64,000 nucleotides of DNA from Planctomycetota bacterium (GCA_043803805.1 JAZDJP010000086.1:7271-71270), one strand, 5' to 3'. Shown: positions 1 to 17,409, counted from the first letter of the stretch. The notes: generated by a model from the sequence alone, not told the origin. A program made the numbers and translations.

Positions 1-974
1 GTCCCCACATCCAGAGGTCCGACCTTCTCCACCGGCCCCTCTGCGCGTTTAAGTTTCTCTACGACGCGCTCGATGGGTTTGTAGTAAACCGGACGGGTGA
101 AGGGCTCGGGCTCTCCCTCCATGGCGATGAGCCTGTACTTGGCCGGGGTGTCCTTCCCGGCCAGGCGGATACTGTCGAAGTAGATATCGCTGGCGCCCTC
201 GTAGCCGTTGACGCGGCACTGGTAGCGCCAGGCCTTGGTCACGTCCAGCTCGGCGACCGCGGCCAGCTCCTTGAGCGGGAAATCGAGCGTGACCTGTTCG
301 CCCTTGGGAACCTTGAAGACGGCCACGGATGTGCGCACGCCGAGGGGCCCGCAACTGATCCGCGGCCCGGAGGCGTCGCGGACGAAGAGACCCAGAACCA
401 CCGGCGCGTCCGGCGCCAGGACGTCGACGCGCAAACGTTCCCAGGCCGACCAGTCGCCGCCGCCCTGCTCGAAGCGCCAGACCTTGCAGAAACGCTCGAA
501 GAAATAGTACGGATTCTCACTGCTGTGGGTGGGCACGCCCGGAGGCGGCCAGTAGCTGAAGCGCTTCTGCTTGAGAGCGCTCTCGATGTTGGCCCAGCTC
601 GCCGCCTCGCACTCCCGAGGAGTCCAGCGCATGGCGTGCCTGCCCTGGGTGGCCCCCGTCTTGAAAAGCGTGAGGGTGGGAGCATCCCGGGAGGAAGACT
701 TGGCGCACTCGTAGATCGTCACGTCGCCGTCGTAGCCCTCGGGGAGCTTGAGTTCGGCCTCGTGATCCTTCCATCGCCAGCCGGCCTTGGGGCCCTCTCC
801 CTGCCAGGGTTTGCCCACCACGTAGGCGGCGCCGCCGCTGTCCTTGGGTTTCATCTCATCGATCTCGAAACCGACCAGGAGCTTTTCGCCCTCGCCGGCG
901 GAGACGAACCTCGCCGCCAAGACGAGCGCGGCGACCGCAACGGCTGTCGTTCCCCTCGTTATCGCCATAATCAT
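1..974 (-). CDS. Secreted protein (3' end outside window), paralogue of the extracytoplasmic tail of the ECF sigma at 12229-15129
   Basis: Not in the ORF track. Hand translation from ATG 974 (GGAGG upstream): MIMAITRGTTAVAVAALVLAARFVSAGEGEKLLVGFEIDEMK...LKLPEGYDGDV...ATQGRHAMRWTPRECE...DWSAWERLRVDV...VEKVGPLDVG. Open to the window edge, with an N-terminal signal peptide. Confidence 0.85.
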   Translation of the reverse strand, partial: MIMAITRGTTAVAVAALVLAARFVSAGEGEKLLVGFEIDEMKPKDSGGAAYVVGKPWQGEGPKAGWRWKDHEAELKLPEGYDGDVTIYECAKSSSRDAPTLTLFKTGATQGRHAMRWTPRECEAASWANIESALKQKRFSYWPPPGVPTHSSENPYYFFERFCKVWRFEQGGGDWSAWERLRVDVLAPDAPVVLGLFVRDASGPRISCGPLGVRTSVAVFKVPKGEQVTLDFPLKELAAVAELDVTKAWRYQCRVNGYEGASDIYFDSIRLAGKDTPAKYRLIAMEGEPEPFTRPVYYKPIERVVEKLKRAEGPVEKVGPLDVG

Positions 975-1029
975 GACACCCTCCCCCCAACCCGGCAGAG
1001 CCGGAACCAAACCGGTCGAACCCTCAATG

Positions 1030-1128
1030 CCGCTCGTGGTGAGCCCTTCGACTCGCTCCGCTCGCTCAGGACAGGCTCTGTCGAACCATGAGCGGTGGCT
1101 CATCCTTCGACCCGCTCAGGATGAGCGG
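1030..1128. repeat. REP-like palindromic element (CCTTCGAC..GCTCAGG family), copy 1
   Basis: ccgctcgtggtgagc...gtcgaaccatgagcgg followed by gctcatccttcgacccgctcaggatgagcgg. The same core recurs at 30486 and 39970. Confidence 0.8.
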
Positions 1129-1221
1129 TTTTATCACTTCGCAAACGGATATTTCCTTGCCGTTTCTCACAAGATTTCACAACCAAGAGTCTGATGCCAA
1201 ATCCAAAGCGCTCCCACTCCG

Positions 1222-3879
1222 CTACTTTCCCATCTTCCCGGCCACCTCGGCGGCGGCGGCGTAGAGGTCCGCGGAGCGCTTCTGCCATCCGGATCCCCGG
1301 AACGCCACACCGCCCACGTCGCTCGGCGCGGCGTTGGCATTGCCGTTGCGCGCCCAAATCATAGCTTCCGTGCGCTCATCGAGCAACTTCTGAACCCGAT
1401 CGGCCAGATCGCCGCCGATCTTCTTGTCGAGAATCGCTTTTTCAAGAAGGATGCGCGTCTCGGTTTCCTGAAAGCCCTCGCGCATCACCTCCATGCGAAC
1501 CGTGGGCACGGGACCGGCTCGCCCCGGAGACACCAGACAGTACGGAACGAATTGAAGATTCTTCGAATTCTCCAGTTCCGCCGGGTAGCGGTTAAAATAG
1601 TTACTGTTGCTGGAGATGACATGGTGTCGGTCGATGGTGCTTTCGGGATCTTTGCCGGTTGCTATGCAATGGAAGAAATCAAATCCTATCCGGCCGATGC
1701 CCCGGAGACCTCCCATCTTGCCGGGCGATGTCACCGTGGCCTCCATGGCCTGGCGGTAATCGGCCAGGTCGCTCCACATCCGGAAGCCGCCTCCCCCGTT
1801 AACGGAGCAGCCGAATCTCGGGAAGGTCGTCTGCAAATCCGGATTCTTCCAGCCGTAGACCCGTCCGATCGAGGGAAAGGGTGTCACCTCAATCCCCCAG
1901 ACATAGGCCAGGCAACCCACTTTGGCGCCGCTGAATTCCTTGGGTGTGAACGGATGGGTGGAGATATACCACGTGGTTCCCGGGGCGGCGGAGTCGAGAT
2001 CGGCAACGGCGAGCTTGCTCGGACGCCGATCCCCGGCCACCCCGAACATCATCGCCTTCTCCATGCCCCGCGCGGCCAGCCTCTTGCGCATGCCGTCCAA
2101 AACCGGCTTCCAAAAATCCCTGGTCTCGGGCGCGCCCCACGAGGGACCTTCCTCTTCCGTCAACTTGCCGGTGGCCGGATCCAGAGAGGAAAAAAGCATG
2201 CCTCTCATCCCTCCCGGCTTGGCGATATTCCCGGCCCACTCGAAGCCGGTTTCGTTCGTCCACACGTAGAGGCAAACCACGGGAATCTTGCCCATGTGCT
2301 TGATTGCCAGATCCAGATATTTCTCGGCAATGCTGAAGTCATATTTCCAGGATCCCCCGGACTCCTTGATCCATCGCACCATGGTGTGCTCGTTTCCAAG
2401 CTCCGTCCGGCGCTGGAGCGGGATGTAGACCGTCTTGTTGCCCATTTGTCCCATGAGATCGAAGGACTTCCCGATGAGCTTCCAGTGCTCCTCCGACCAC
2501 AGGGGCACGTTGTACTTCGTCGCCAGAGACTCGGGCGACTGACTCATTCCAAGAAAGGAAACGAATTCGCCGGGATCGGGCAGTGTCCAGTCGGCCACCG
2601 ACAGCTCCACGGGAACCTCGGCGCTGACGGGTCCGCTGACGGTCAATGTGGCCGTGTAGACGCCGGGCTTGGCGTCCTTCGGCACGTGAACCGTGATCCA
2701 CACCGGCTGGACCGCCCCGCCGCCCTTCTTGTCCGCGACCGGGACATCGGCCGGCGGATCGCTCTCCAGACCGTCGAAGAAGAAACTCCCGGCCTGCACG
2801 GGGTACCCGCCTTGATAGGGACCATCCAGCCGGGGATAACGAACGGCGACGGCGGAGGCCGGAATACTCCCAGGACCTTTCAGCTCGGAAACCACAGCCT
2901 TCAGCCCGTGGATCGGTTCGCTCGAGCCCACCACCACCTGACCGGAGAAGATTCCGTTCCGGGCGCCGGCAAGCCGTATCGGCTCCAGCTTCTCGCCGGG
3001 GATGGCGTAGTCCACCGGACGCAGTTTCTGCAGGACGCTGGCGTTCCAAACCTGCACCCCTTTCGGCCGGCCGGTGACCGGCGCGCCGCCGCCCGCGGTG
3101 GAGAGTTTGAGATCCTCCAGCGCAAGCATCGCCCACTCCGCGCTGGTGAGCGCGCCGGAATTGTAGAACAACCCGGAGGTGGGCGCGCGGTGGATCTCCA
3201 CGGCCAGGACGTTGAGACCCGGCTTCAGCAGTGAGGACGGCATTTTGACTCCGGAGATTTTGCGAATGCGCTTTTCGAGACGATCCGGATACTTCTTGGC
3301 GTCGAAAGCCGGTCTGATCAACTTGCCGTCCGGAGCCACATAGGCCTCCGGAGGATAATCTTCGGCGGGAGTCTCGATCGCCAGCGGCCCGGCGGGCAGA
3401 TTCGCCCGGGCCACTTCCTTGCCATTCAGGTAAACCGCCGCCCCTCCGCGAAAAGAAAGATCCAGCGTCAAGTCCCCTGCTTGGGATGGATCCTTGACCT
3501 CGAACTTGCCGCGCAGGCAGAGAAGCGCCAGGCTCCGGGGAGAAGGCAGCAATCCACCCTGGTGACGCTCGGCAAAGGGCCCGCAATCCTGAGCCCAGGA
3601 ACTGTCCTCAAAGCCGGACTCTTTCCAATCCGCCGGCGGCGCCGGTGAGCGCACAGACTCCACCTTCTTGGACTGGCCGAATTTGAAGACAAGCGTTTCC
3701 AGTTCGCCGCTCTTGGCGCGGACCTCTTCGGTTTTCCAAAACGTGAAACAGCGCCAGGGGCTCCCGGCGTTGAGCACGTTCGCGCCGGAACCCGCGGCCC
3801 CCTCGGCGGCAACCACCCGGAAACCGCCCGACACCAAGACCAGCACCAACGCCGCCCAAAACAATATATATTTCCTCAT
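1222..3879 (-). CDS. Secreted glycoside hydrolase 123-like / DUF6067-type protein
   Basis: Signal peptide MRKYILFWAALVLVLVSGGFRVVAA; motifs LCLRGKFEVKDP, GGAAVYLNGKEV, QPVWITVHVPKDAKPG, QSPESLA, RMEVMREGFQE. Paralogue of 8346-10952. Start placed at the ATG after AAGGAGG. Confidence 0.7.
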   Translation of the reverse strand: MRKYILFWAALVLVLVSGGFRVVAAEGAAGSGANVLNAGSPWRCFTFWKTEEVRAKSGELETLVFKFGQSKKVESVRSPAPPADWKESGFEDSSWAQDCGPFAERHQGGLLPSPRSLALLCLRGKFEVKDPSQAGDLTLDLSFRGGAAVYLNGKEVARANLPAGPLAIETPAEDYPPEAYVAPDGKLIRPAFDAKKYPDRLEKRIRKISGVKMPSSLLKPGLNVLAVEIHRAPTSGLFYNSGALTSAEWAMLALEDLKLSTAGGGAPVTGRPKGVQVWNASVLQKLRPVDYAIPGEKLEPIRLAGARNGIFSGQVVVGSSEPIHGLKAVVSELKGPGSIPASAVAVRYPRLDGPYQGGYPVQAGSFFFDGLESDPPADVPVADKKGGGAVQPVWITVHVPKDAKPGVYTATLTVSGPVSAEVPVELSVADWTLPDPGEFVSFLGMSQSPESLATKYNVPLWSEEHWKLIGKSFDLMGQMGNKTVYIPLQRRTELGNEHTMVRWIKESGGSWKYDFSIAEKYLDLAIKHMGKIPVVCLYVWTNETGFEWAGNIAKPGGMRGMLFSSLDPATGKLTEEEGPSWGAPETRDFWKPVLDGMRKRLAARGMEKAMMFGVAGDRRPSKLAVADLDSAAPGTTWYISTHPFTPKEFSGAKVGCLAYVWGIEVTPFPSIGRVYGWKNPDLQTTFPRFGCSVNGGGGFRMWSDLADYRQAMEATVTSPGKMGGLRGIGRIGFDFFHCIATGKDPESTIDRHHVISSNSNYFNRYPAELENSKNLQFVPYCLVSPGRAGPVPTVRMEVMREGFQETETRILLEKAILDKKIGGDLADRVQKLLDERTEAMIWARNGNANAAPSDVGGVAFRGSGWQKRSADLYAAAAEVAGKMGK

Positions 3880-3915
3880 CGAACATCCTCCTTGAAGAAA
3901 TGGATTATGCATCGT

Positions 3916-5763
3916 CTAGTTTCCCGCCGGAATGACAAAGTGAATGGGCTTTTTCTGCAAATCAAATTTTTTCTGTTGCGGCGGCTGTTGCGGTAATCGC
4001 CAGGAGATGACGACATCTCCGGAATCCATCCTGCCGAGGAACGCCTCGCTCGTCCCCGGAGAAATCACCCACGCACCGAGATCCCGTCTGTCGTTCCGGG
4101 CGATGACCGTTACCGGTCCAGCGTATCCGCCAAGCCCAAGAGATACGCGCACGCTGAGCGCCGTCTCGTCATCCACACCGCGTGGAAGAATCCAGACATC
4201 GCCGTTGAGAAGGACAAGCGCCATATCCTGAGCGCCGTCGCCGGTCAGATCGGCCAGCACTCCCGCTTGCTGGCCGTCGCAAGCCTTGGGCAGAATGTCA
4301 GTTTCTGCAAGGTCGAGGGGCTTGCGGGCATGATTGAGACTTCGGAATCCGCGGTTGAAGAAGCATTGCGGACCCTGCTTGGAGTAGGCGATGAAAATAT
4401 CCTGAAGCCCGTCGTTGTTGAAGTCACACTCGTTTCCGAATATGCCGCCCGGCTTCGCTGTATAGGCAATACCACCGGATAGGCCCAGCATGTTTACGAA
4501 CTTGCCATCGCCTTCGTTCTGCCACAGGCGGCAGGCATCCTCGGCCACCGTGAAAACATCCAGGCAGCCATCCACGTTCCAATCTCCGAGGAATGCGTGG
4601 GAACATCCTTTTCCGATCCCGGCCGGGCACGATGCCGCTTCGGCAAACTCACTCCCGCCTTTCCCCTTGTAGAAATGACCACCCTTCTCAAAAAATCGCA
4701 TCACGTCGGGAATGTTGTCTCCATCGAAATCAGCGACGAGACACGGCCCGGCGGCTCCGAGATTTTCATCTTGGGTTCCGGATGAAAGAGGCTTGAGCAC
4801 AAAAGCGCCCGGCTTGTCCTTACAGGACACAAGAAGTACCGGCGCGACCGCCGAGTTCCAAAGGATTCCGGCGAGACCTCTGGCACCCGCGTCCAGAGCG
4901 GAAAGCCCCAGGCATCCGGTCTTGGGCACATCCGCCGCGGATGTCGGAGAGAATGTGCCGTCCTCCGCCTGCGCCCAGAGCGTGAGCGCCTTGCCGTCGG
5001 AGCTTGCGAGGTCGAGTTGCCCGTTGCCGTCAAAATCACCCCAAGCGACAAAGCGGGATTTGGAAGCGAGTTTGAGTTTGGTTGTCACATCCGCAAATTT
5101 TTTCTCTGCTCTGTTGTAACTGAAAACGTGATCGCCCGATTCCGATGCGACGAAGAGCGAGGGATTTCCGTTGCCGGTGATATCCACCGCCTGAGCCAAA
5201 CGGACTTTTCCTTCCACCTTGGCGATGTTGACGGGATCATCCCACCAGGCGTTGCCACCCTCGGGGACGAAGGTATCGGGATGTTTTATAATGAGCGCGA
5301 CCATCTTGATGAGCATGTCCGTGCCGCCTTCCCATACGAGGTACGAATCGCTAAAGTCCGCGTCCCAGGTCTCCTGAACCGAAGATTTGCTCAGGTGGAT
5401 CCATTTCCCGGAAAGATGCAGGCAGCCGGCGGGGGCGCCCCGTTCGTCTTTCCCGACGAAAAGCAGCGCCGGGGCGTTACCGAGACGGCCGATGATTTCT
5501 TTGACGATCTTGTTGTGTTCGGGATTGTCACCGTTGGTCACGTTGATAACCGGGTTCTTGTCGGGCTTTTTGCCCTTCAGGCATGCCTTGATTTCTGAAG
5601 AGCAGTTACCCTTGTCGTCGGCGGGATTGAGTGTGAGCACGAGAATGAGATCCGCATGTTCCGTGAGCTGCACCGGTGTAAAGCTGATGGTGACTATGGC
5701 GTAAGCGACCGCTCCACAAATGAGGACACCCAACGCCAGCAAAACCAAGATTGTGTTTCGCAT
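3916..5763 (-). CDS. Secreted FG-GAP/VCBS repeat protein
   Basis: Signal peptide; repeated Ca-binding blades (WGDFDGNGQLDL, ADFDGDNIPDV, GDWNVDGCLDV, CDFNNDGLQDI, ADLTGDGAQDM). Confidence 0.85.
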   Translation of the reverse strand: MRNTILVLLALGVLICGAVAYAIVTISFTPVQLTEHADLILVLTLNPADDKGNCSSEIKACLKGKKPDKNPVINVTNGDNPEHNKIVKEIIGRLGNAPALLFVGKDERGAPAGCLHLSGKWIHLSKSSVQETWDADFSDSYLVWEGGTDMLIKMVALIIKHPDTFVPEGGNAWWDDPVNIAKVEGKVRLAQAVDITGNGNPSLFVASESGDHVFSYNRAEKKFADVTTKLKLASKSRFVAWGDFDGNGQLDLASSDGKALTLWAQAEDGTFSPTSAADVPKTGCLGLSALDAGARGLAGILWNSAVAPVLLVSCKDKPGAFVLKPLSSGTQDENLGAAGPCLVADFDGDNIPDVMRFFEKGGHFYKGKGGSEFAEAASCPAGIGKGCSHAFLGDWNVDGCLDVFTVAEDACRLWQNEGDGKFVNMLGLSGGIAYTAKPGGIFGNECDFNNDGLQDIFIAYSKQGPQCFFNRGFRSLNHARKPLDLAETDILPKACDGQQAGVLADLTGDGAQDMALVLLNGDVWILPRGVDDETALSVRVSLGLGGYAGPVTVIARNDRRDLGAWVISPGTSEAFLGRMDSGDVVISWRLPQQPPQQKKFDLQKKPIHFVIPAGN

Positions 5764-5775
5764 ATTCTTCCTCGT

Positions 5776-8349
5776 CTATTTGACACCACCCTTTTCCGGC
5801 TCGAAACAATACATCATACCGTCGCTTTGAGGATTGATAAAGATCCGCCCGTTCGTCACGATCGGTCTGGCGCAGACCCGCGGAGCGAACCCATGACTAC
5901 TCATCCAGACCGCCTTGCCGGTCTGGAGATCATAAATCCGGAGACCTCCCATCGTAGCGCCCACTCCCCACCCCGGCAGAACGATCGTGCTCTCCGCGCA
6001 GGTGTGATACCCCAAACTGACAACGGGCTTGCCTCCCGCCGAGGACATCGGCCGCGGCTTTCCGTCGGCGATGGCGATGATGCTCGCCGTGCCGCCGTAG
6101 CGCGAGGGAACGACACAATCCGCGCCGACGGCCGGGGCCTGCTCGAATCCTCCGACGGAACTCTTCCACGCCACCGTCCCATCTTTGGCCCACAGGCACG
6201 CAAACGAAGCCCCATCTACTCCGAAGAACAATTTTCCATCCTTACCGGAGAGACAGGCCGAATTGCCGAACTCGGCCGGATTCTTCCAAAGAACTTTCCC
6301 GTCCGCCGGATCGATGGCGACGGTGAGTCCCTTCCTGTCCTTGATGCCCTCCCGCCAATCGGTGCTCCGCGTGTAAAAAAGCTTCCCGTCCAGAAGGCAT
6401 CCCCCCAGACCGCACCCCTGCTTTCCGGCGATCTCCGGCAGGGAAACTTTCCAGACCTCGGTTCCTTTTTTCAGATCGAAGGCCTGAACGGTCGGGATGT
6501 GGGTGGTTCCGTGCAGGGTGGCCGTCACAACCACGTTCCCCGTGCAAATCGGCGCCGTCCGGCTCCAGTCGCCGGGAAAGCCGACCTCCGCCTGCCAGAC
6601 ATCCTCCCCGGTACGGGCATCCACGCCGTAGAGCAGGCATCGCTTGATAAAACCGGAGGTGTCCTTGTTCCCCCTGACAAAAAACAATCTGTCTCCGCAC
6701 ACCGTCGCCGCCCCGCGGTGAGCGGTGTGCAGGTAACCCGTGGGCACGAACCGCCGCCAGCGGACGCGGCCCGTGGACTGTTCCACGGCCGACAGCAGAG
6801 TATTCGTCGAGGCCAGGAAAAGATCCGTGTCGCCGGCGGTCACGGGACCTTTGAAGATGGAAAAATCGCGAACCGCCCAGCGCAGACGCAGCGGCGGGCG
6901 GAGCCCGGCGTCTTCCACCGCCGCGGTGTTGGCGGCGTCGGCGTTGGCGTAAGGCCAGCCGTAGGTCTTGCCGGTCGCAGAAACGACCTTGCTCCGGGGC
7001 TCGCACAGGGTCAGATTCTCGGTCCGCGGAGCCGCCTGCCCTCCGGGACCCAGCACGTAAAAAAATCCGTCGTCACAGCCGAACCAGACACAGCCGCCGG
7101 AAATCGCCGGCGACGACGCGATCATCTTCCGGTGCGGCGTCTGGAAACGGAAAGGCGCCGGCTTGAACGCGTCCAGATCCAAGCCCGCGGAGTCCACGCC
7201 GACGACGATGACCTCTCCCCCGACGGTGGTAAAAACGGCGTGGTCTTTGGAGAGGGCCGGCGACGTCACGGAAGGAGTCCATTTTTCGGCGGGAGTCCGG
7301 GATCCGTAGGATGCCCACTTATTCCGCCAGCCGTCCGGTGTCCCTTTGTACTCGTAGGCGGCGAACCCAAACTCGTGACGCCCGAAGTAGATTGTGGTTC
7401 CGCGAGCGGCCGGCGTGCCCAGCACCTGATATTGTCCCTGAATGGTGTCCTTGCTTCGAAACGCGAGTCCATACATCTCACGGAAAAGACCGTCCTTCAG
7501 AGAGGCGCGCGCGATGCACCCCAGCCCGTCCGTGCCGGGCATCGCGACGTAAAGGTTCTCGCCGCAAACCGAAATGCCGCGAGGCACCCCGTGCATCAGC
7601 GCGACAGGCGTTCGAATCGTCCAGCTACGACTCACGCCGGTGCCCTCATCCTCCAGGCAGGCATAGTCGTATCCGCACGTGACGAGCACTTTCTTCCCGG
7701 AAACGCACAGCTCTCCGGAAGCGTAGTGAGGAACCTCGCAGGCATGACTGCCCCACCCGCCGCTGAGTTTCGGCAGATTCGCGACGGGTTGCGCGTAATA
7801 ATCGAACCGCCATCGCTCCTTCCCGTCGAGATCCAGACAGTGGATGACGGCCCCCACGGTCATAATATAGATGGAATCGTTGGCGGCGACGGGCGGGGAG
7901 ATGATCGGCCATCCGAGACCGAGGGACTTGATCACCGCGCCGTTTTTGGCATCGAGGATGTAAAAGTTCCCGGCCGTGGTGCCGTAGTACATGCGGCCCT
8001 TGACAACGCACGGCGAGGAGGTGTTCGACCCCATGGCCTTTTCGCCGTCGGGGGAGGCCTGCCACACCACGCGCCCCGCCTTCGGATCCACGCAGTAGGC
8101 CGTCCCCATCTGATCCACGACGTAGGCCAACCCTCCCACCACCGCCGGGGACGTCATCACGGCGTCGGCAAGCTTGACCTGGGCCGCGAGCCCCAGAGGC
8201 AGTTTGAGCTCCTCGTCGTCGGCGTCCCCGGTGCGCTCCGGGACGCGCATGAACTGCGGCCAGTCGGAGGCGCGCGCGTCGCGCGCGACGCCCGCCAGAA
8301 GCAATAGCGCGATAAACAAACCCCATCTCTTCGCCGTGATCGTGTTCAT
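5776..8349 (-). CDS. Secreted PQQ-like (BamB-type) beta-propeller repeat protein
   Basis: Signal peptide then SDWPQFM; many TSPAVVGG/SSPAISGG and xDxxxGxxxW blades; a second 'WPYANAD' propeller start. The ATG overlaps the upstream stop (ATGA). Confidence 0.85.
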   Translation of the reverse strand: MNTITAKRWGLFIALLLLAGVARDARASDWPQFMRVPERTGDADDEELKLPLGLAAQVKLADAVMTSPAVVGGLAYVVDQMGTAYCVDPKAGRVVWQASPDGEKAMGSNTSSPCVVKGRMYYGTTAGNFYILDAKNGAVIKSLGLGWPIISPPVAANDSIYIMTVGAVIHCLDLDGKERWRFDYYAQPVANLPKLSGGWGSHACEVPHYASGELCVSGKKVLVTCGYDYACLEDEGTGVSRSWTIRTPVALMHGVPRGISVCGENLYVAMPGTDGLGCIARASLKDGLFREMYGLAFRSKDTIQGQYQVLGTPAARGTTIYFGRHEFGFAAYEYKGTPDGWRNKWASYGSRTPAEKWTPSVTSPALSKDHAVFTTVGGEVIVVGVDSAGLDLDAFKPAPFRFQTPHRKMIASSPAISGGCVWFGCDDGFFYVLGPGGQAAPRTENLTLCEPRSKVVSATGKTYGWPYANADAANTAAVEDAGLRPPLRLRWAVRDFSIFKGPVTAGDTDLFLASTNTLLSAVEQSTGRVRWRRFVPTGYLHTAHRGAATVCGDRLFFVRGNKDTSGFIKRCLLYGVDARTGEDVWQAEVGFPGDWSRTAPICTGNVVVTATLHGTTHIPTVQAFDLKKGTEVWKVSLPEIAGKQGCGLGGCLLDGKLFYTRSTDWREGIKDRKGLTVAIDPADGKVLWKNPAEFGNSACLSGKDGKLFFGVDGASFACLWAKDGTVAWKSSVGGFEQAPAVGADCVVPSRYGGTASIIAIADGKPRPMSSAGGKPVVSLGYHTCAESTIVLPGWGVGATMGGLRIYDLQTGKAVWMSSHGFAPRVCARPIVTNGRIFINPQSDGMMYCFEPEKGGVK

Positions 8350-10952
8350 CGAACATTCTCCTTCCCGGCCACCTCGGCGGCCATGCGGTAAAGTTTCGCG
8401 GAGCGTTCCCGCCAGCCGTCGTCGTAGGCATAGTGCTCGGCCGGCGGCTGGTAGTACCGGAAATGGGTTATCCGGCAAAGGTCGGCCCTCTTGTCCAGGA
8501 GCCGGCGACAGCGCTCGGCGAGTTCGGCGTCGAGCTTGTTCTCCACCAGCGGCAACTCCACGCAGGCGCGCGCCTCCGCCTCCTGAAGCCCCTCACGGAG
8601 CATCTCGATCTTGACGGTCGGACGGGCTCCGTCCTTGTCGGGGACCGCCAGCCAGCACATGAGCGGACAGCGTTGCATCGATGAAGAGGCCGGCCACCGA
8701 TCAAACAGCGTATTGAGCTTGCCGCCCTTTCCCGCGGGCCAATAGTCCATGCACATTCTGCCGGCGCCTTTGTCTCCCAACAGCATGTAGCGCTCGGCCA
8801 TGGTGCGCAGGCTCATGGGCGGTTGCCTCGCGTCGTGAATTCTCTGGCTCCCGACAATCAGCGTCCCGTGGGGATGGGGCGTCCACCAGTAGTACAAACG
8901 CTTCCGGCTCCCCGGAAGTTCCGGCGGATCGATATCATTGGGAACGTAGAGATACTCGAAGTATCCCATGGAACTATCCTTGCCTCCATAGGAAGATCCC
9001 CTCCCGTGAGCTCCGTAGTGCCAGCGCGCTTCCGGCCAGAGCTCCTTGAACTGCGCGACCACATCCTTGTGAATGCAGCCATCGGCGCTGATACCCAGGA
9101 TCGGGGTGATCTTGTCCAGCCCCTGGGTTTTCAGCCTATCGCGGATCTGATCCAGGAGCGGTTTCCAGAGATTCTTGCTCTCCGCCGTGCCGACGATCGG
9201 CAACGGCATGGGTTCGGCCTTGCCGGCGGCCTCGTCCACCACGGTCACGAACGTGGGCTTGTCGGGAAGGGACGCGCCAAAGTTGAAGGGCGGCGTGTTG
9301 CCCGGCACGTGCCACACCTGAAAGGAAATCACCCGGAGATTGCAGTACTTCTTGGCCAGCGCCAGGTAGCGGTCGAAAGCGGCAAAATCGTACGTGAAGG
9401 AACCGTCCTTCCGCCGGATCCACTTGACCATGCTCTCGTCGTTGCCGAACTGGGTCTGGGTCACCAGCGTTACGACGAGCAATTTGTTGCCCAGGTAGCC
9501 CATGAGTTCGAAAGACTTTTCCATTCGCTTCCAGTGCTCGTCGGACCACATCGGCACGCCGTACTGGAGGGCTACCGACTCGGGCGACTGGTAGATGCCG
9601 ACGAAGGAGCGATAATCCCCCGCATCGGGCAATGTCCATCCCGTGACTTCCAGTTCGACGGGCACATTGGTTTCCGGCAGTCCGCTTGCCGACAAGACCA
9701 GACCCCCCTTGTAATTGCCGGGCGGCGCGTCTTTGGGGACGTAAACCGTGATCCACACCGGCTGGACGGCCCCCTTGTCCTTTCCGCCGGTGACCTCCAC
9801 CTTTGCCGGCAGATCGTTTTCGAGAGCGGCGAACGCGGGGCTGGGAACTCCCAGGCTGACCAGCGTGGCGCCGCGCACCCGGATGTTCGTCGCGGAGATT
9901 CTTCCGGCGCCGCCCTCCTGCGCCAAGTCGGTCGCATGGGCCTTCAATCCATCAAAGGCCGAAGACGAACCCACCACCACCTCGCCGGAATAGTAACCGT
10001 TCCTTGCCCCGGCCAGCCGCATGGGCCGCAACGGCTCGCTGGGATCTCCGTACTTCTCGGCACCAAAAAGGTTATGAACATCCTCATTCCAGACCTGGAT
10101 CCCGCCCGGCCTGGACGGAGCGACGATCGCCTGCCCGGTGCCGTCGGCGGCCAGGCGCAAGGACCGCAATTCCAAGTGAGGCCATGAAAGTTTGTTCTCT
10201 ACGTTTCCCCACTTGAGCGCCTCCGGCCGATAGGCACCGCGGTGCAATTCGACGGCAAGAAGGTTACATCCCTTGCGCAATTCTTTTACGGGGAGTTCCA
10301 CCAACCCAAGATCCCGGTCGCGCCTGGCCGCGCGATCGGCGAGATCCTTGTCGCCTTTTGCGACGCGACCGTTTATAAAGTAGGCGGCGGGCATCACGTT
10401 TCCGTTCGCCTCGATGTACGCTTCCACCGGGTACGGCTCGGCCGGCGTGTCCGGCTTTATCTCTCCGGCCGGCAGATGGGCGCGGAACACCTCCTTGCCG
10501 TTGAGGTAGACAACCACGCCGCCTCCGTACCTGGCCGAAAGGATGATCTTCCCGACCCCGCCGGGGTCCTTGACTTCAAACCTGCCCCTCAGGCAAAGCA
10601 ACGATTCGTACTCGGGCCAGTAGGTATCCGTGGAACCCCTTGCGCAAGGAAAGGGACCTTTCGACCGGGACCACTCCCTGTCGTCGAACTCCGGCTTCAT
10701 CCAATCCGCCGGCGGCGGTGAGGTGTTCAACCGGGACGGCCCAAAGGTTTTTGGCGCTGTCGCCTCGGGTTGTTTCTCCTTGAGAAGCGACAAAGGCACC
10801 TCGGCCTCGCGGACGACGGCGTGAATCCGCCAGTAATTATCGGCGGAGAGAATGATCTGCATGTCCTTCGCCGGCGGCTCGGCGGCAACCACCCGGAAAC
10901 CTCCCGATAGCAAAACCAGCGCCGCCACCAACAACAAGATTCTCTTTTTCAT
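8346..10952 (-). CDS. Secreted glycoside hydrolase 123-like / DUF6067-type protein
   Basis: Signal peptide MKKRILLLVAALVLLSGGFRVVAA; LCLRGRFEVKDP, QPVWITVYVPKDAPPG, YQSPESVA, KIEMLREGLQEAE. Clear paralogue of 1222-3879. Confidence 0.7.
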   Translation of the reverse strand: MKKRILLLVAALVLLSGGFRVVAAEPPAKDMQIILSADNYWRIHAVVREAEVPLSLLKEKQPEATAPKTFGPSRLNTSPPPADWMKPEFDDREWSRSKGPFPCARGSTDTYWPEYESLLCLRGRFEVKDPGGVGKIILSARYGGGVVVYLNGKEVFRAHLPAGEIKPDTPAEPYPVEAYIEANGNVMPAAYFINGRVAKGDKDLADRAARRDRDLGLVELPVKELRKGCNLLAVELHRGAYRPEALKWGNVENKLSWPHLELRSLRLAADGTGQAIVAPSRPGGIQVWNEDVHNLFGAEKYGDPSEPLRPMRLAGARNGYYSGEVVVGSSSAFDGLKAHATDLAQEGGAGRISATNIRVRGATLVSLGVPSPAFAALENDLPAKVEVTGGKDKGAVQPVWITVYVPKDAPPGNYKGGLVLSASGLPETNVPVELEVTGWTLPDAGDYRSFVGIYQSPESVALQYGVPMWSDEHWKRMEKSFELMGYLGNKLLVVTLVTQTQFGNDESMVKWIRRKDGSFTYDFAAFDRYLALAKKYCNLRVISFQVWHVPGNTPPFNFGASLPDKPTFVTVVDEAAGKAEPMPLPIVGTAESKNLWKPLLDQIRDRLKTQGLDKITPILGISADGCIHKDVVAQFKELWPEARWHYGAHGRGSSYGGKDSSMGYFEYLYVPNDIDPPELPGSRKRLYYWWTPHPHGTLIVGSQRIHDARQPPMSLRTMAERYMLLGDKGAGRMCMDYWPAGKGGKLNTLFDRWPASSSMQRCPLMCWLAVPDKDGARPTVKIEMLREGLQEAEARACVELPLVENKLDAELAERCRRLLDKRADLCRITHFRYYQPPAEHYAYDDGWRERSAKLYRMAAEVAGKENVR

Positions 10953-12196
10953 CGAGCATTCTCCTTGAGGAAATATTTTCCCCCTAATGCCGCATCCAGG
11001 GCGCCCTTCAACGCCTCCAGCGTCGCTTGGATGTCGCGCCGGCCGTGCGAGTAGCTCATGAAGTACCGCGGATTGGGGAACACGCCGCGCGAGTACATTC
11101 CGCGCGACACCCTGTCCATCAACTCCGGTCTGCCCTCGATTCCCAGTATCGGCGACACCCCCGATCCGTCCACCACCGCCGTCAGCCCCGCTTCCGAGCA
11201 GATATTCCGCCACCCGTTGCCCAGCAGCGTTCCCATCCGGTCGAGATGCCGATGCACCGGCTCCGCGGCGTGGATCTCCATGCAGGCGACGGCCGCCGCG
11301 AGAGACAACGTCTCGCCCCCATAGGTTGTCGTAATGAAAACCCTGGATTCCTCCAACTGGTTCATGATGTCCGCCCGGCCCGCAAACGCGGCCAGAGGAT
11401 ATCCGTTGGCCATCGCCTTGGCATAGCCCGCCAGATCGGGCGCCACGCCGAAATACTCGGCCGCCCCGCCCGGCGCCAGCCGGAAACCCGTCAGAATCTC
11501 GTCATAGATCAGCAGCACGCCCCGTTTCTTCGTGAGTTCGCGCAACCCGCGGACCCAGTCCGGCTTGGGAACCCCCTTCCACTGGTACGGCTCGGTAATC
11601 ACCGCCGCCAGATCGCTCCGGTGCGTCTCGATCAACTCCTCCGCTTTGGCCAGATCGCCGTACGGAAGATCGAGCGTCAGCGCCTTCAGGCATTTCGGCA
11701 CGCCCGTATTGTCCGGCGCCTGGGTCTTGGCCGCCCACCAGTCCTGCCACCCGTGATAACCGCACGAGAGGATCTTCTCCCGTCCCGTAAATGCGCGAGC
11801 CAGCCTGACGCACGCCGAGTTGACCTCACCGCCCGTCTTCAGAAACCGCACCCGCTCGGCCCCGGGAACCATCCGGCAAAACCGGCGCGCCGCCTCCACC
11901 TCGATCGGCGAGGCCATCGAGAAAAGCACGCCCTTCCTCATCTGCGCCCGGACCGCCTTCTCCACCGCCGGATACCGGTGTCCCAGCACAATCGGCCCCA
12001 GTGAACAGCGGTAGTCAATGTACTCGTTCCCGTCCACATCCCGGATGCGGCAACCTTTGGCGGACTCGATGAACAACGGCATCTCGCCCGCGTGGGACGC
12101 GATCGGTTTCTTCGCGCGCGTCTGCGTCCCGGTTGGACAATGGGTTCGCGCTTTTTCGTACAGCGCCTGAGATCGCTTGACTGTGAACCTGCCCAT
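10949..12196 (-). CDS. Class III PLP aminotransferase (glutamate-1-semialdehyde aminomutase-like)
   Basis: DVDGNEYIDY, VRFLKTGGE, GYHGWQD, LIYDEILTGFR, PDLAGYAKAMANGYPL, TTYGG. RBS GAAGGAGG before ATG 12196. Confidence 0.9.
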   Translation of the reverse strand: MGRFTVKRSQALYEKARTHCPTGTQTRAKKPIASHAGEMPLFIESAKGCRIRDVDGNEYIDYRCSLGPIVLGHRYPAVEKAVRAQMRKGVLFSMASPIEVEAARRFCRMVPGAERVRFLKTGGEVNSACVRLARAFTGREKILSCGYHGWQDWWAAKTQAPDNTGVPKCLKALTLDLPYGDLAKAEELIETHRSDLAAVITEPYQWKGVPKPDWVRGLRELTKKRGVLLIYDEILTGFRLAPGGAAEYFGVAPDLAGYAKAMANGYPLAAFAGRADIMNQLEESRVFITTTYGGETLSLAAAVACMEIHAAEPVHRHLDRMGTLLGNGWRNICSEAGLTAVVDGSGVSPILGIEGRPELMDRVSRGMYSRGVFPNPRYFMSYSHGRRDIQATLEALKGALDAALGGKYFLKENAR

Positions 12197-12228
12197 CGAA
12201 ATACCTCCTTCTTCATTTTTTTCATTCT

Positions 12229-15129
12229 TCACGGGTTAGGAATGCGCATGAACTTGACCCAGCTCCGGTCGCCGACGGCAACGTTGTCCCAGAATACCGG
12301 CGCGTAATCCGGCGGGCTCACCACCGGCGCGGCCAGTTTGTTGAGCTTCTCGGTTTCGGTGTGGAGCGTCTCGACCGCCGACCACTCGCCGGCCCAGCGG
12401 CGCAGGCGGATGTCGCAGGTGTCGGCCTTCTTCACGGCGTAGAAGCAGAAAACGGTTTCCCCGCTCCGGGTCAGGACGTAGCTCGTGATATCGCCGTCCG
12501 CGCCGGTGTCCACGGTTTCGCGCGCCCAGGCGCCGCCGGCGTTGTTCACGCAGAGCAGCTCCTTGCCGCGCCGGGCGGCGAGGAAAATCCGTCCGTCGGG
12601 GAAATACGTCTCGAACGCCCGGTTGTACGTCCAGCCGCCCACACCCTCGCCAGGAGACTTGGGCATGGCCTCAATTCTCTGAACCGGCCCCCACGTCTCG
12701 CCGTCGAAGATCGACCACGCGTCGCCCCACTTGTCGAAGGCGGCCGTTTGCCCCTTGTAGGGAACGAGCAGTTCCCCCGGCACCGGATAACCCTGCTCGA
12801 GGAGGATTTTTTCGGGAAGCTTGTCCCCGATCTTGGGAGTGAAGGGCTTCCGGGGTGGCTTGTCCTCCGGGTTCATGGCCGGGCACCAGACCGCCCCGTC
12901 CGTGTCGCTGTACTTGGCCAGCGGCTGGGCCTTGTCGTGGAAGGCCATCCAGAGACGGCCGGAGGAAAGCCGCAGGACGCGGGCCAGCCCCGTGCACTTG
13001 CCCAGGGTCTGGTCGGCCAGCGTCATCGGCCGGGGAATCCAGCGCCTGCCGTCGAAGGCGATCTCCTGAAAGAACATGTCCGAGCCCTCGGAGTAGGTGT
13101 CGCAATAGAGCATCCCGGTATAGTAGAGACTGCCCGACTCGTCGGAGCAGAGCCCTCCGCTGCAGGTGTTGCGCGCGCCGGGGACGAGCAGAGCCGCATC
13201 CTTCTCGCCAGGCGCGAGACCGCCCCAGGTCGCCCCGCCATCAAAAGAAGCCGAGGCGTAGATTCCCCCTGGAAGGGGCTTGCTCTTTTTGCTCCCCCCG
13301 GCCCCGAACATGACGGCCAGACGATCATTGTCGTAGGCGACGGCGCCGCGCTCCGCGGAGATGAAGTACGTCTCCCCGAACCCCCCGAGGTGGCCGGGGC
13401 CGCAGGGAAGCGTGCCGGGCAACTCCGTCACCGCCACCGGCCCGAGCTTCTCGACCTTGCCGGTCTTGCGAACCACGCCGGCGGCGTCCTTCAAGATCGG
13501 CGGGGGCGCGATCAGCTTCCGCGCGAAGGGCTCGCAAGGCCGGTCATCAGTGACGAGCGGATACGAGCCCTGCCCCTCGCCGCCCGACGCCACCAGACGA
13601 ACGTTGTCGAGATAAATCAGACTCTTGGCCGACAAACCATCCAAACGCAACCGGTAACGAAGGATTTTTTTGAGATCGAGTTCGGCCGCGGCCGCCGCCC
13701 CGGCCATATCCATGTCCACCGTGACGGTCTTGCCCTTTGGAATGGCGAAAACGCGGAGCTGGGTCCGCCTGAAACCGGCGTCCTCGATGCGCACTCCGAC
13801 GACGCCCTCGGCGTCGGGAATGGTCATCTCGAAGCGCAGGCGTTCGTACCCCGACCAGTCGGGGTTGTAGGCCGGTTCGGGGTATCCCGCCTTGCCCCGC
13901 TCCGCCCCCATGTCCTCTCTGACCGTGGAACGATGTCTCCAGATTTCCCCGGCGCGCTGCACCAGCCAGTCGCGCTCGGTCTGAACCGGGGTCTTGGGTT
14001 TCTCGTCTTTCAGCCACGGAAGATACTTGTCCCAGTTCCCGGCGGTCATTTCGCACTGCGCGGGATTGCGCTCCAGCGCATAACGGCCCTGGCTGGCGTG
14101 CGCGCGGCGCAACACCAATTCCTGGGTATCCCGGGAACCGCGGCCCATGAAAACGGCAAAGTCGCCGTCGTGACCGGCCGGGAGGGGCACCCCCTTGCCA
14201 TGACTGTAGTACTCGTAATTTTCAATGACCTGGCCGAGTTTGTAACCCGCGCCGGAGAACCTCTGCATCTCCTCGCGCTCGAATCCGCAAAGGACGCACC
14301 CGCCGGCCGCCGGCAACGGCGCACCCGCCGCATCGTTTTTGTCGAGCGATTTTTGCAAAAGGACGGCTCCCCCGCCGCCCAGGAGAACCGCACCGGCAAC
14401 CACCGCCGCCGCAACTTTGAGTTTTGCGATAAACAACGCTTTCATAATTCCGTTGGACAACAGGGTGGCCTGGGTGGAGATCTCCCTTCCCGCCGCCAGG
14501 TTCCCTAGGGAGAGGACAAACGGCTCCGGCAGGGCGGCCGAGGCCGATTCCGCGGACAAGAACCCGGCAAGAGCGGCGACACTCACGCCGACGCCCCGGC
14601 GGACGAGACGTTCCCGAAGCAATCCCCGACCCCTGTCAAGCCACGTGGAAATGGTTCCTTCACTTTTGCCGAGGATGCGGGAAACCTCCTCTTTTGTCCT
14701 TCCTTCGAGATGATGCAGAATCAACGCCACTCGGTATTTTTCGGGCAGATGGTCGAGTTCGTCGTCCAAAACCGGTTTGACGCGCTCCCCATCTTCCGGC
14801 ATCAGGGTATTGTCTTTCATCCTCCCGGCCTCCTGTTCGTGCTGTTTGCGGATTTTTTCCGCTTCGAGAATCTGCAGGGACGCGTACCGGGCCGTGTGAT
14901 GAAGCCACCCGGCGACCGATTCCCGATTCGTGAGACCCCCGGCTTTTCGGGCCAGCGTGAGAAAAACCGCCTGCGTCGCATCCTCCACGTCCTCCCGACG
15001 GTTCAACAACCGGGAGCAGACGCGCATGACCGTCGCGCCGTGGCGGCGCACCACGATCTCAAACCCTTCGCTTTGGCCGGTTCCCACGAAGTTTTTCAGC
15101 AATACCCCGTCGCTCACCGTGGAATCCAT
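12229..15129 (-). CDS. ECF-type sigma-70 factor fused via a TM helix to a large extracytoplasmic region (carbohydrate-binding-like domain plus BNR/sialidase-like propeller)
   Basis: Region 2 (VRRHGATVMRVC..DVEDATQAVFLTL..AGWLHH); region 4 (LPEKYRVALILHHLEG..EGTISTWLDRGRGLLR); TM VAAAVVAGAVLLGGGGAVLL; Asp-box-like SFDGGATW and SDTDGAVW. Alternative start at 15153. Confidence 0.9.
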   Translation of the reverse strand: MDSTVSDGVLLKNFVGTGQSEGFEIVVRRHGATVMRVCSRLLNRREDVEDATQAVFLTLARKAGGLTNRESVAGWLHHTARYASLQILEAEKIRKQHEQEAGRMKDNTLMPEDGERVKPVLDDELDHLPEKYRVALILHHLEGRTKEEVSRILGKSEGTISTWLDRGRGLLRERLVRRGVGVSVAALAGFLSAESASAALPEPFVLSLGNLAAGREISTQATLLSNGIMKALFIAKLKVAAAVVAGAVLLGGGGAVLLQKSLDKNDAAGAPLPAAGGCVLCGFEREEMQRFSGAGYKLGQVIENYEYYSHGKGVPLPAGHDGDFAVFMGRGSRDTQELVLRRAHASQGRYALERNPAQCEMTAGNWDKYLPWLKDEKPKTPVQTERDWLVQRAGEIWRHRSTVREDMGAERGKAGYPEPAYNPDWSGYERLRFEMTIPDAEGVVGVRIEDAGFRRTQLRVFAIPKGKTVTVDMDMAGAAAAAELDLKKILRYRLRLDGLSAKSLIYLDNVRLVASGGEGQGSYPLVTDDRPCEPFARKLIAPPPILKDAAGVVRKTGKVEKLGPVAVTELPGTLPCGPGHLGGFGETYFISAERGAVAYDNDRLAVMFGAGGSKKSKPLPGGIYASASFDGGATWGGLAPGEKDAALLVPGARNTCSGGLCSDESGSLYYTGMLYCDTYSEGSDMFFQEIAFDGRRWIPRPMTLADQTLGKCTGLARVLRLSSGRLWMAFHDKAQPLAKYSDTDGAVWCPAMNPEDKPPRKPFTPKIGDKLPEKILLEQGYPVPGELLVPYKGQTAAFDKWGDAWSIFDGETWGPVQRIEAMPKSPGEGVGGWTYNRAFETYFPDGRIFLAARRGKELLCVNNAGGAWARETVDTGADGDITSYVLTRSGETVFCFYAVKKADTCDIRLRRWAGEWSAVETLHTETEKLNKLAAPVVSPPDYAPVFWDNVAVGDRSWVKFMRIPNP

Positions 15130-15381
15130 CGCCCCACCGCCTTTATCACACATTTAATCTCTCACTTTAACAATATATCCGGAATGACGGACGTTTTGGT
15201 TCAAAAAAATTGGTTTTTTTGTGTTGGGAGGTCTGGAATCATGTCTTCGCTGTTCGCCCGGCGCCGATTGCCTGTTCGAACCCCGGCGGGTTGTGATATA
15301 ATGCCCGGCGGGTTCGGGAACGGTGATTCGTGGTACGTTGTTTCTGCAAGCGACGAGATACGAGTGACGAGCGACGAATAA

Positions 15382-15454
15382 GGGGCTGTAGCTCAGTTGG
15401 GAGAGCGCCTGGTTTGCAACCAGGAGGTCAGGGGTTCGAATCCCCTCAGCTCCA
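15382..15454 (+). tRNA. tRNA-Ala(TGC)
   Basis: GGGGCTG/CAGCTCC acceptor stem with G3-U70, anticodon arm CCTGG-TTTGCAA-CCAGG, T-loop GTTCGAATC. CCA not encoded. Confidence 0.97.
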
Positions 15455-15494
15455 GTTGACCGGTCCGGCGGGAACGGATCCCCACCGTTGGCGG

Positions 15495-15665
15495 TCAGGA
15501 TTTTTTCCGGCGCAGTAGCACCACGATGTCAATCGCCGTCGCGACGAGGAAGACGGGGCCGAAGAGGTAAAACCAGCGGCTCCCGCCGGCGATCGCCAGG
15601 TAGAGGCATCCGGCGCCGAGCGCGAGGGTGACCGCGAATGTGAGCCATGTTGTCTGGGTGTTCAT
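15495..15665 (-). CDS. Small two-TM membrane protein (56 aa)
   Basis: MNTQTTWLTFAVTLALGAGCLYLAIAGGSRWFYLFGPVFLVATAIDIVVLLRRKKS; ATGA overlap with the HAD gene stop. Confidence 0.7.
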   Translation of the reverse strand: MNTQTTWLTFAVTLALGAGCLYLAIAGGSRWFYLFGPVFLVATAIDIVVLLRRKKS

Positions 15666-16312
15666 GCGAGGTATTTTAGCACATCCCGGGGGTGCTTCGC
15701 AAGCGCCCGCGCCCCGGCGGCGCCGAGTTCCTCCGGCCGGAATCCCCAGAGCGCCCCGACGGGAAACATCCCGGCGGCGATGGCGGTGGCCATGTCGGTC
15801 GCGGTGTCGCCGAGGTAGAGGATGTCGGACGGGGGAAATCCCATCCGCCGGGCGGCCGCGAGGGCCCCGGCCGGGTCGGGTTTTTTCGGGAGGGATCCGT
15901 CCTGGCCGAGGAGGACGGCGAACCGGAAGTCCCCGAGGTAACCGGCGACGCACTTCTCGACGAAGGCCCGCGGCTTGTTGGAGACGACCGCGGCGGGGAT
16001 GCCGCGCGCCGCGAGCGTCGCCAGGAGTTCGGGGATGCCGTCGTAGACGCGGGTCTTCCGGTTCCAGACGCGTTCGTATTCGGCGAGATATCCCGCCAGA
16101 CACGCGGCAATGGTCGCGTCGTCGCGGCGGCCCGGCGGGAGGGCCCGTTCGAGAAGCGTCCGCGCCCCGTCGCCCACAAATTGCCGGTAGGCCGGGAGGG
16201 GATGCCCGGGGAATCCCCGTGCGGCCAGCGCCGCGTTCGTCGCGTCGGCGATGTCCTCCGCCGTGTCGAGAAGGGTTCCATCCAGGTCAAAGAGAACGGC
16301 GCGGCGGATCAT
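15662..16312 (-). CDS. HAD-family hydrolase (phosphoglycolate phosphatase-like)
   Basis: LFDLDGTLLDT, VVSNKP, KKPDP, YLGDTATD. Confidence 0.92.
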   Translation of the reverse strand: MIRRAVLFDLDGTLLDTAEDIADATNAALAARGFPGHPLPAYRQFVGDGARTLLERALPPGRRDDATIAACLAGYLAEYERVWNRKTRVYDGIPELLATLAARGIPAAVVSNKPRAFVEKCVAGYLGDFRFAVLLGQDGSLPKKPDPAGALAAARRMGFPPSDILYLGDTATDMATAIAAGMFPVGALWGFRPEELGAAGARALAKHPRDVLKYLA

Positions 16313-16450
16313 GGGACGGATTGTATCATGATTTGGGGAACATCCAACGACGTCAGAGAACCCCGGATGGATCTCTTTTCCACAAGGCTAAAAAACGGTC
16401 ACGGCAAGACCCCGATCCCTCGACCCCAATCCCTCCGGATCTTCTTTCAA

Positions 16451-16555
16451 GTCTAACGAAAAGCTGACCGATGACGAGGAGCGCGCCAAGGATGCCCAAA
16501 CTGGAACATGCGGCTGACCGCGCTCCTCGTCATTCGGTCCAGCGTCTGGTTCGGC
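16451..16555 (-). mobile_element. Integron attC recombination site (105 bp)
   Basis: On the minus strand: GCCGAAC-cagacgctggaccgaatgacgaggagcgcg...cgcgctcctcgtcatcggtcagcttttc-GTTAGAC. Long imperfect palindrome with extra-helical bases, 10 nt after the cassette gene stop. Confidence 0.85.
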
Positions 16556-16565
16556 GATTCCATAC

Positions 16566-17063: not shown

Positions 17064-17073
17064 GGTTCACTAC

Positions 17074-17290
17074 GCCGAACAATTATTAGATGTCGCATCG
17101 TTGAATCATAATCAACGACGCCGATGGAGATTACCACCCGTCAAAGACACTGTCAATCATCATCCCCAATCGGCTCATTTTGTTTCCAGCAAATACATAA
17201 CAGATTGTCTTCTAATTTTCTGGCGTTGTAAAAACCATGAATTATGACGTTATGCGTTGAGGATACATAACTGGGGAAAATGATTATGAA
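17074..17290 (-). mobile_element. Putative attI site and AT-rich integron platform remnant
   Basis: Minus strand ..TCTAATAATT-GTTCGGC at 17090-17074. GTTCGGC is the exact complement of the attC R'' GCCGAAC. The ~200 bp upstream is AT-rich and non-coding. Confidence 0.55.
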
Positions 17291-17381: not shown

Positions 17382-17409
17382 CTTTTTGCTTGATTCGCCA
17401 TTCGACATT

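Follow-up and report, generated by a model that had tools for sequence, protein, structure and literature searches.

A planctomycetal sigma factor fused across a membrane helix to a copy of an exported protein family found in its downstream gene row

The stretch of DNA analyzed here (the window) is 64,000 nucleotides long and comes from a Planctomycetota bacterium (GCA_043803805.1, JAZDJP010000086.1:7271-71270; G000:C86:7271-71270 in our contig numbering), whose assembly comprises 3.9 Mb in 146 contigs. Its subject is a minus-strand gene for a 974-residue protein that joins an extracytoplasmic function (ECF) sigma factor, through a linker and a transmembrane helix, to a large C-terminal tail. 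We label the family of that tail "family X". The gene heads a co-directional, tightly packed row in which it is followed by genes for an aminotransferase, a GH123-like protein, a PQQ propeller, an FG-GAP protein and a second GH123-like protein; after a repeat-filled spacer come a free copy of family X and ceramidase-like, M14-like and amidohydrolase genes (Table 1). An initial annotation of this locus had proposed that the tail serves as the sensor of a one-component system, which would induce the cluster that encodes the tail's own free form.

Table 1. Features of the sigma fusion and its gene row (window positions)
Feature	Position	Strand	Basis
Gene for 974-residue fusion: ECF sigma, linker, transmembrane helix, family-X ectodomain	12229..15153	-	One ORF, Pfam domains
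Sigma region 2 to region 4, predicted cytoplasmic (residues 35-176)	14626..15051	-	Pfam, TIGR02937
Conserved juxtamembrane linker (residues ~186-239), RRGVGVSVAALAGFL...IMKAL	14437..14598	-	Conservation among fused sigmas
Single transmembrane helix (residues ~240-267)	14353..14436	-	Kyte-Doolittle 2.17
Ectodomain, family X: CBM11-like module, linker, Asp-box beta-propeller (residues 285-974)	12232..14301	-	Homology, profile matches
Class-III aminotransferase	10949..12232	-	Aminotran_3, E=2.4e-52; NCBIfam alignments start at residues 17-21
GH123-like protein, longest ORF	8346..11213	-	GH123_cat, E=1e-20, model positions 2-157 of 324 only
PQQ_2 / BamB-like beta-propeller protein	5776..8478	-	PQQ_2, E=1.1e-39
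FG-GAP_3 repeat protein	3916..5763	-	FG-GAP_3, E=2.9e-26
Second GH123-like protein	1222..3912	-	GH123_cat, E=1.7e-21
Dispersed repeat, ~210 nucleotides, in the spacer before the free X gene	980..1192		>100 blastn matches genome-wide
Free family-X paralogue with signal peptide	1..977, continuing past the window to G000:C86:6115	-	Alignment, contig extension
tRNA-Ala, upstream boundary of the unit	15382..15454	+	ARAGORN

The sigma fusion and its topology

The fusion is a single, uninterrupted open reading frame (ORF), as seen from both the ORF call and the translation. Its N-terminal part matches Sigma70_r2 (residues 35-94; E=9.8e-9; 35.3 bits against a cut-off of 24) and Sigma70_r4_2 (residues 129-176; E=1.1e-11; 44.7 bits against 25.7) in Pfam, and the ECF sigma model TIGR02937 in NCBIfam (73.4 bits against 42.9). 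With regions sigma2 and sigma4 only, each above threshold, the protein qualifies as an ECF (group 4) sigma factor. At E<=0.01, the Pfam scan of the fusion returned only sigma and helix-turn-helix families, with neither FecR nor zf-HC2, and inspection of the translated linker revealed no Cys/His motif. The closest relative of the sigma core in this genome is a sigma factor on contig C104 that is fused to a GH123-like tail (43% identity, E=1.5e-38). Named homologues of the sigma and of X come from Gemmataceae, Paludisphaera, Ca. Brocadiia and Planctomycetota metagenome-assembled genomes (MAGs).

The linker and the helix behind it are kept in 50 fused sigmas whose tails are unrelated, and the linker also occurs in 13 sigmas of this genome. 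We scanned hydropathy by the Kyte-Doolittle method in 19-residue windows, with 1.6 as the threshold for a transmembrane segment; a hydrophobic stretch at the start of the linker (residues 186-204) falls below it, with a mean of about 1.3. We read the linker of the fused sigmas as a cytoplasmic element. The helix proper lies some 20 residues ahead of the common (L/C)GFE motif, at the place of the signal peptide in free X copies, and the VLCGFE that follows it in the fusion corresponds to the KLLxGFE of the free copies. Exported free paralogues settle the topology: because they carry a signal peptide and the same KLLxGFE start, the tail must face outward, and because they are exported, one transmembrane helix is favored over two. 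Secretion sorting domains and CBM domains in some X relatives (see below) likewise speak for an outward tail. The predicted arrangement is a cytoplasmic sigma domain and an extracytoplasmic ectodomain that is a full-length member of the exported family X. The one-component transmembrane build described in the initial annotation, with an ECF sigma, one helix and an exported-type domain on one polypeptide, thus holds.

Immediately before the helix, most fused sigmas share a conserved MKxMxWxKxK motif (residues 236-246; nucleotides ~14418-14448). An internal start at Met236, giving an exported X without sigma, was considered and rejected: no Shine-Dalgarno-like sequence precedes the ATG, and the motif looks structural.

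Family X and the copy in the downstream row

Scans of Pfam and NCBIfam assigned the sigma tail to no family. When 1.84 billion proteins were searched with a profile built from 23 relatives, 296 representatives reached E<=1e-3 and 79 reached E<=1e-30; hence, family X is rare. A 60-member profile (A2) matched solved sialidases in the PDB down to E=3.7e-10, mostly via repeated Asp-boxes and with alignments that reach little past them, and its positions 130-223 matched the CBM11 of endoglucanase H (1v0a, E=7.6e-6). Pfam recognized BNR in 20 of the 60 members, BNR_2 in 17, the type IX secretion (T9SS) sorting domain Por_Secre_tail in 10 and CBM_11 in one (0.0023). A separate scan of 19 relatives found CBM domains in two, CBM6/35 in one and CBM11 in the other. 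Sialidases carry a catalytic arginine triad and a Tyr/Glu nucleophile pair, and their Asp-box motif reads S-x-D-x-G-x-T-W. The tail has such boxes at residues 352-359 and 465-472, which places it among Asp-box propellers. ESM Atlas neighbors (BNR_2, CBM_4_9 and GH43) had scores under 0.9 throughout and serve only as leads. From these matches we conclude that family X is a predicted exported protein consisting of a CBM11-like module, a linker and an Asp-box beta-propeller. The family is not previously described; what is new is the sensor family, the overall design being already known.

Nearly all free X copies in the genome whose N terminus lies on a contig carry a signal peptide and KLLxGFE. 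Of 42 columns with at least 80% conservation across 118 free members, the sigma tail retains 39; the other three read E for D, M for L and, in an Asp-box, T for D. Where a column is at least 90% conserved across 22 close relatives (131 columns), the tail departs from it at 31 positions (other rows, 3-25), with 6/25 in the N-terminal module, 2/6 in the linker and 22/99 in the propeller. A decayed pseudo-enzyme was rejected as a description of the tail because it has an outgroup position (see below), keeps those 39 columns and spreads its deviations evenly. GH123-like tails fused to sigmas are not unusually divergent, with deviations at 5-6 of 88.

How is the tail related to the X gene at the window's left edge? 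Within the window, the open-ended ORF at 3-1103 (minus strand) aligns colinearly with sigma residues 284-575 (102/319 identical, 32%; E=3e-37), and every matching block quoted in the initial annotation is present in that alignment. Extending the contig, as the annotation had suggested, yields a free X of 752 residues, of which residues 75-751 align with sigma residues 287-973 (254/730 identical, 35%; E=3e-114). Hence, the homology spans the whole tail. The free protein begins with MIMAITRGTTAVAVAALVLAARFVSA, followed by KLLVGFE. The ATG at 1103 falls within the dispersed repeat and is a spurious upstream start; the real one is probably Met43 at window position 977, directly before the signal peptide and near the 974 given previously.

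A signal-peptide-bearing homologue of the tail is accordingly present in the same co-directional row, as had been claimed. Its designation as the tail's "twin" was not borne out. By tblastn, the genome holds 25 family-X genes, the sigma tail included, and among the 24 free paralogues the copies on C62 (40.4% identity) and C13 (37.4%) are closer to the tail than the downstream copy (34.8%); the copy on C131 stands at 35.3%. The downstream copy shares 45-46% identity with copies on C131, C104, C142 and C13, and its nearest relative is P0045, a protein of another genome (66%), with which it pairs in a maximum-likelihood tree of 36 rows. There the tail sits on a long branch (length 1.15; median, 0.28) and is sister to all 23 rows of the close subfamily (support 100 for all 24, 92 for the 23 without the tail). 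Given this tree position and the higher identity to other copies, the tail and the downstream X are not a recent duplicate pair. Among the findings that the annotation had named as counting against it, a non-significant alignment was not seen, whereas the one on scattered paralogues without linkage to such sigmas holds by half: many copies as close as this one are spread over the genome, the majority away from such a sigma.

Between the sigma and the free X, Pfam confirmed the five genes listed in the annotation (an aminotransferase, two GH123-like proteins, a PQQ propeller and an FG-GAP protein). The aminotransferase start overlaps the sigma stop codon (GTGA), and the true start of the first GH123-like gene probably lies downstream of 10949. 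In both GH123-like proteins the GH123_cat match is limited to model positions 2-160 of 324, and the alignment of the second with BvGH123 (5l7r) spans only chain residues 78-316 of 578. A repeat-filled spacer of 245 nucleotides separates the free X gene from the packed genes upstream; because of it, co-transcription of free X with the row is uncertain. An Rfam search of the spacer gave no match and its fold z-score was -1.33, and on those grounds a terminator or RNA element was rejected. Upstream of the sigma gene lie only the tRNA-Ala and a HAD hydrolase.

Pfam scans of the genes called around the sigma found no anti-sigma family (zf-HC2, RskA, FecR), and there was no SusC or SusD among the Pfam matches for genes called on C86:1-20000 and in window positions 15000-25400; on both counts the initial annotation agrees. 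Beyond the left window edge, G000:C86:2800-6085 (-) (L001) encodes ceramidase-like, M14 carboxypeptidase-like and Amidohydro_2 proteins, followed by a transposase fragment. The Ceramidase_alk match of the first of these (E=3.9e-8) is barely over the cut-off.

Relatives of the fusion and known tethered sensors

The window protein is one of a set. In this genome, 15 of 21 ECF-like matches carry a helix plus 350-1030 further residues, and about 15 sigmas share the sigma-linker-helix chassis with varied tails: GH123-like (C104, 1107 residues; C131, 1131 residues), NHL propeller (C43), serpin (C78 and C100), HEAT repeats (C112) and several unknown domains. Among 150 public representatives listed, we scanned 19 long or offset proteins for sigma domains. 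Sigma regions 2 and 4 lie ahead of X in three of the matches listed, P0097 (911 residues), P0100 (891 residues) and P0118 (984 residues). All three align colinearly with the window protein (23-28% identity), and their tails resemble a distant X subfamily. P0097 and P0100 share 54% identity, the core of P0118 is closest to another sigma of our genome, and none of the three cores is specially close to that of the window sigma. Judged by these comparisons, sigma-X fusions probably arose separately in three lineages. A search of metagenome contigs with P0097 as the query gave no match. The Cys pair C400/C436 of the tail, 99-100% conserved in the 118 free X proteins, is kept in the window protein and P0118 and replaced in P0097 and P0100.

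The nearest described group is ECF57 (formerly ECF01-Gob). The passages on it in the PMC7826278 supplement describe planctomycetal ECF sigmas with C-terminal extensions that contain about two transmembrane helices on average, and with a pair of invariant cysteines, of which sigma2 and sigma4 each hold one; they add that activation "could involve release from the membrane". The section of a preprint that treats its abundance gives 5.3 members per planctomycetal genome. Like ECF57, the system here has an ECF core, a long C-terminal extension with a hydrophobic helix, and many copies per genome. Unlike ECF57, the window protein has only the sigma2 Cys (C46, in MRVCSRLL), with His at the sigma4 position (LILHHLEG against the consensus VLCYLEG of 50 relatives); it has one strong helix rather than about two, the weaker 186-204 segment being subthreshold; and its tail is of the CBM11-like and Asp-box propeller type rather than WD40. 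WD40-type tails occur in 7 of the 34 nearest sigma homologues. The protein thus shows the helix-bearing C-terminal extension of ECF57 and not its Cys pair. To our knowledge, no member of this abundant type has been studied experimentally.

Other single-chain systems share parts of the design. According to the relevant part of PMC8999054, the Pseudomonas putida sigma/anti-sigma hybrid IutY (ECF243) is released by Prc and RseP. The window protein resembles it in being one polypeptide with a cytoplasmic sigma, one transmembrane helix and a part beyond the membrane, and an RseP-like M50 protease is encoded on C84 of the genome. It differs in its large glycan-type ectodomain and in having no detected FecR or anti-sigma domain, whereas IutY has a FecR-type anti-sigma part and works with a TonB-dependent receptor. 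The same part of PMC8999054 presents Streptomyces coelicolor SCO4117 (ECF52), together with ECF48 and ECF53, as having a periplasmic carbohydrate-binding domain and a proteolytic activation model. These join an ECF sigma via transmembrane helices to an extracytoplasmic carbohydrate-binding domain; they are actinobacterial, with a proline-rich region and a zinc-finger anti-sigma domain, which in ECF52/ECF53 is placed between sigma and transmembrane helix, whereas our protein has no zf-HC2 match and a different tail family.

RsgI6/SigI6 provide an established case of a sensor that copies an enzyme of its regulon. In Clostridium thermocellum, the GH10 module of RsgI6 shares 57% identity with Xyn10D, a xylanase of the regulon, and has very low activity with binding retained, as reported in the portion of PMC4711584 on this module; the transmembrane helix of RsgI-type proteins is cleaved by RseP in SigI/RsgI, according to the corresponding portion of PMC12203970. 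The likeness is an outward sensor that copies a secreted module of carbohydrate-active type. The SigI/RsgI6 system differs in using two proteins, another sigma class and a Gram-positive envelope, the sigma and sensor forming one chain here. Polysaccharide utilization loci (PULs) of Bacteroidota are alike in that a glycan-type cluster is headed by an ECF-type regulator; they differ in the SusC/SusD pair and separate anti-sigma, both absent from the Pfam scans of our cluster. The term "PUL-like" used in the initial annotation fits only loosely, for a glycan-type cluster.

A proposed signal pathway and its alternatives

Do the tails of fused sigmas match the genes that follow them? All sigma fusions with X or GH123-like tails (3/3) have 1-3 co-directional free genes of these families within 15 kb downstream. 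A random point has such a downstream gene with a probability of 0.039, and for 3/3 the joint chance is ~6e-5, assuming independent cases. Taken alone, the free X downstream of the sigma-X fusion has a chance value of 0.023 at random points (15 kb). Both sigma-GH123-like fusions (C104 and C131) have a free X immediately after them, and C131 has a free GH123-like gene as well. At G000:C43:4009-20143 (-) (L038), four free paralogues stand in tandem behind a sigma-NHL fusion of 1211 residues; they carry signal peptides and are 32-43% identical to its tail. The tail's best match (48%) is located on C66, not downstream. A small sigma fusion on C131 has one paralogue downstream. The general principle, that a sensor is taken from the family encoded in the neighboring cluster, accordingly has firmer support than the particular claim of a "twin".

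We propose, with a probability of roughly 0.55, that the window protein is a one-polypeptide transmembrane signal transducer of planctomycetal type, responsive to a glycan and controlling clusters of this type. The ectodomain would bind the glycan handled by free X/GH123-like pairs, or a breakdown product of it. Binding would open the fusion to cleavage first at site 1 and next by an intramembrane protease of the RseP type, an order of events proposed by analogy with IutY, SCO4117 and the release suggested for ECF57. The freed sigma would recruit RNA polymerase to promoters of this cluster type, and the downstream free X would belong to the regulated family like any other copy, with no dedicated role as the sensor's partner.

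Several observations weigh against this proposal. Searches upstream of the sigma and within the cluster gave no ECF-type promoter. The shared layout upstream of fused sigma genes, described below, suggests a common type of promoter and ribosome-binding site rather than self-regulation. If the promoter is a common one, the operon would be transcribed regardless of this sigma, and its true targets could lie elsewhere. Predicted ECF57 target promoters are not conserved, according to the passages on that group in the PMC7826278 supplement. With no anti-sigma domain detected, it is unclear how the tethered sigma stays inactive. Finally, a sigma fusion heads only 3 of the X/GH123-like clusters, and others adjoin GntR/LacI-type or BlaR1/BlaI genes.

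The upstream 150 nucleotides of many fused sigma genes are alike (window 15154-15300; C104, C131, C48, C46 and C28): a GATTTT-like element, ATAAT/ATATA some 20-25 nucleotides before the start, then GTGAG(G/A)A. A scan for the sigma-70 consensus found 3 occurrences against 2.6 expected, no more than chance. A GAAC-N4-5-CGTCC motif common to the C86 and C104 upstream regions was dropped, having 298 occurrences genome-wide and a composite pattern that missed C86.

Perhaps there is no regulatory link at all? The sigma would then be co-transcribed from an ordinary promoter and regulate genes elsewhere, the homology being a by-product of the expansion to 25 copies. The upstream layout and the nonconserved ECF57 promoters agree with this, as does the fact that most of the 24 free paralogues are not beside sigma fusions; also, since 2.3% of random points have a free X within 15 kb, a single such case is not overwhelming. 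The joint pattern, 3/3 fusions together with the four tandem paralogues at C43, is far from chance, and we regard an absent link as unlikely, though as the strongest of the competing explanations.

A generic envelope-stress sensor is less likely still. Here the ectodomain would be a folded "plug" whose unfolding or damage triggers proteolysis, and the link to the cluster would reflect only the origin of the fusion. Generic release fits a single chassis with unrelated tails (serpin, HEAT, NHL, unknown). It is hard to reconcile, without specificity, with the complete linkage of tail and cluster family among the X and GH123-like fusions and with the C43 case, and the family-wide conserved columns retained by the tail also speak against it.

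We find it very doubtful that the free secreted X is a partner that docks on the sigma's X ectodomain and relays a substrate-loaded signal, as an outer-membrane receptor does to FecR. The free paralogue in the same row, and the free X directly after both sigma-GH123-like fusions, would suit such a relay; nothing indicates that X oligomerizes, however, and the downstream copy is not the tail's closest relative. Finally, a fusion created by frameshift, a lost stop codon or mis-assembly and without function as a unit, which the fragmented assembly might invite, is highly improbable given the intact reading frame, a junction architecture seen in 14 other sigmas of the genome and three independent public sigma-X fusions of the same architecture.

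If the window protein is the glycan-responsive transducer that we propose, the tail family would offer a rule for guessing what a tethered planctomycetal sigma senses and controls, namely, by its free paralogues next door; given the abundance of ECF57-type sigmas, such a rule would be useful for them. A broader, modular version is tentative: each of the ~15 chassis sigmas may have recruited a copy of a secreted family as its sensor, so that what activates a cluster would be a decoy of the enzymes or binders it encodes. Under this tentative reading, the tail family would equal the immediately downstream family in at least four cases (X, GH123-like, NHL propeller and an unknown domain), X might have been recruited onto sigmas in at least three separate lineages, and sigma-serpins could act likewise as protease baits.

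The two sigma-helix-serpin fusions are at G000:C78:2393-4588 (-) (E=1.7e-102; L039) and G000:C100:5830-8091 (-) (E=1.3e-114; L048). Their tails are ~50% identical to each other, and the genome has no free serpin paralogue. They are candidate protease-bait sensors. The sigma tails on C70, C47 and C7 have a common repeated domain, which is also found in a 1184-residue BlaR1-type (Peptidase_M56) membrane sensor on C40 (L007:327-3881, minus strand), encoded beside a BlaI-like repressor. One sensor module thus appears to serve two signaling chassis, sigma and BlaR1 type.

Family X keeps company with GH123-like proteins beyond the sigma fusions. The genome has 29 GH123-like genes, and 13 of the 24 free X genes lie directly beside one, by our reading of gene neighborhoods. 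Alternating pairs of the two families (29 and 25 genes), for example, on C142 (L006), C66 (L010) and C26 (L011), make up ~3-4% of the assembled bases. Family X was found at E<=1e-10 in 0 of 40 same-phylum genomes. Among X loci of other organisms, a sigma domain occurs at 0 of 33 (10 genome and 23 metagenome loci). A GH123-like gene is present at 5 of the 23 X loci on short metagenome contigs and at 4 of the 10 from Planctomycetota and Victivallis-labeled MAGs (e.g., L028, L029 and L035). X and GH123-like proteins may form an uncharacterized two-protein glycan module, and the pair, with 25 and 29 copies here and further occurrences in other Planctomycetota and Lentisphaerota-type MAGs, is a candidate for a new glycan-degrading one.

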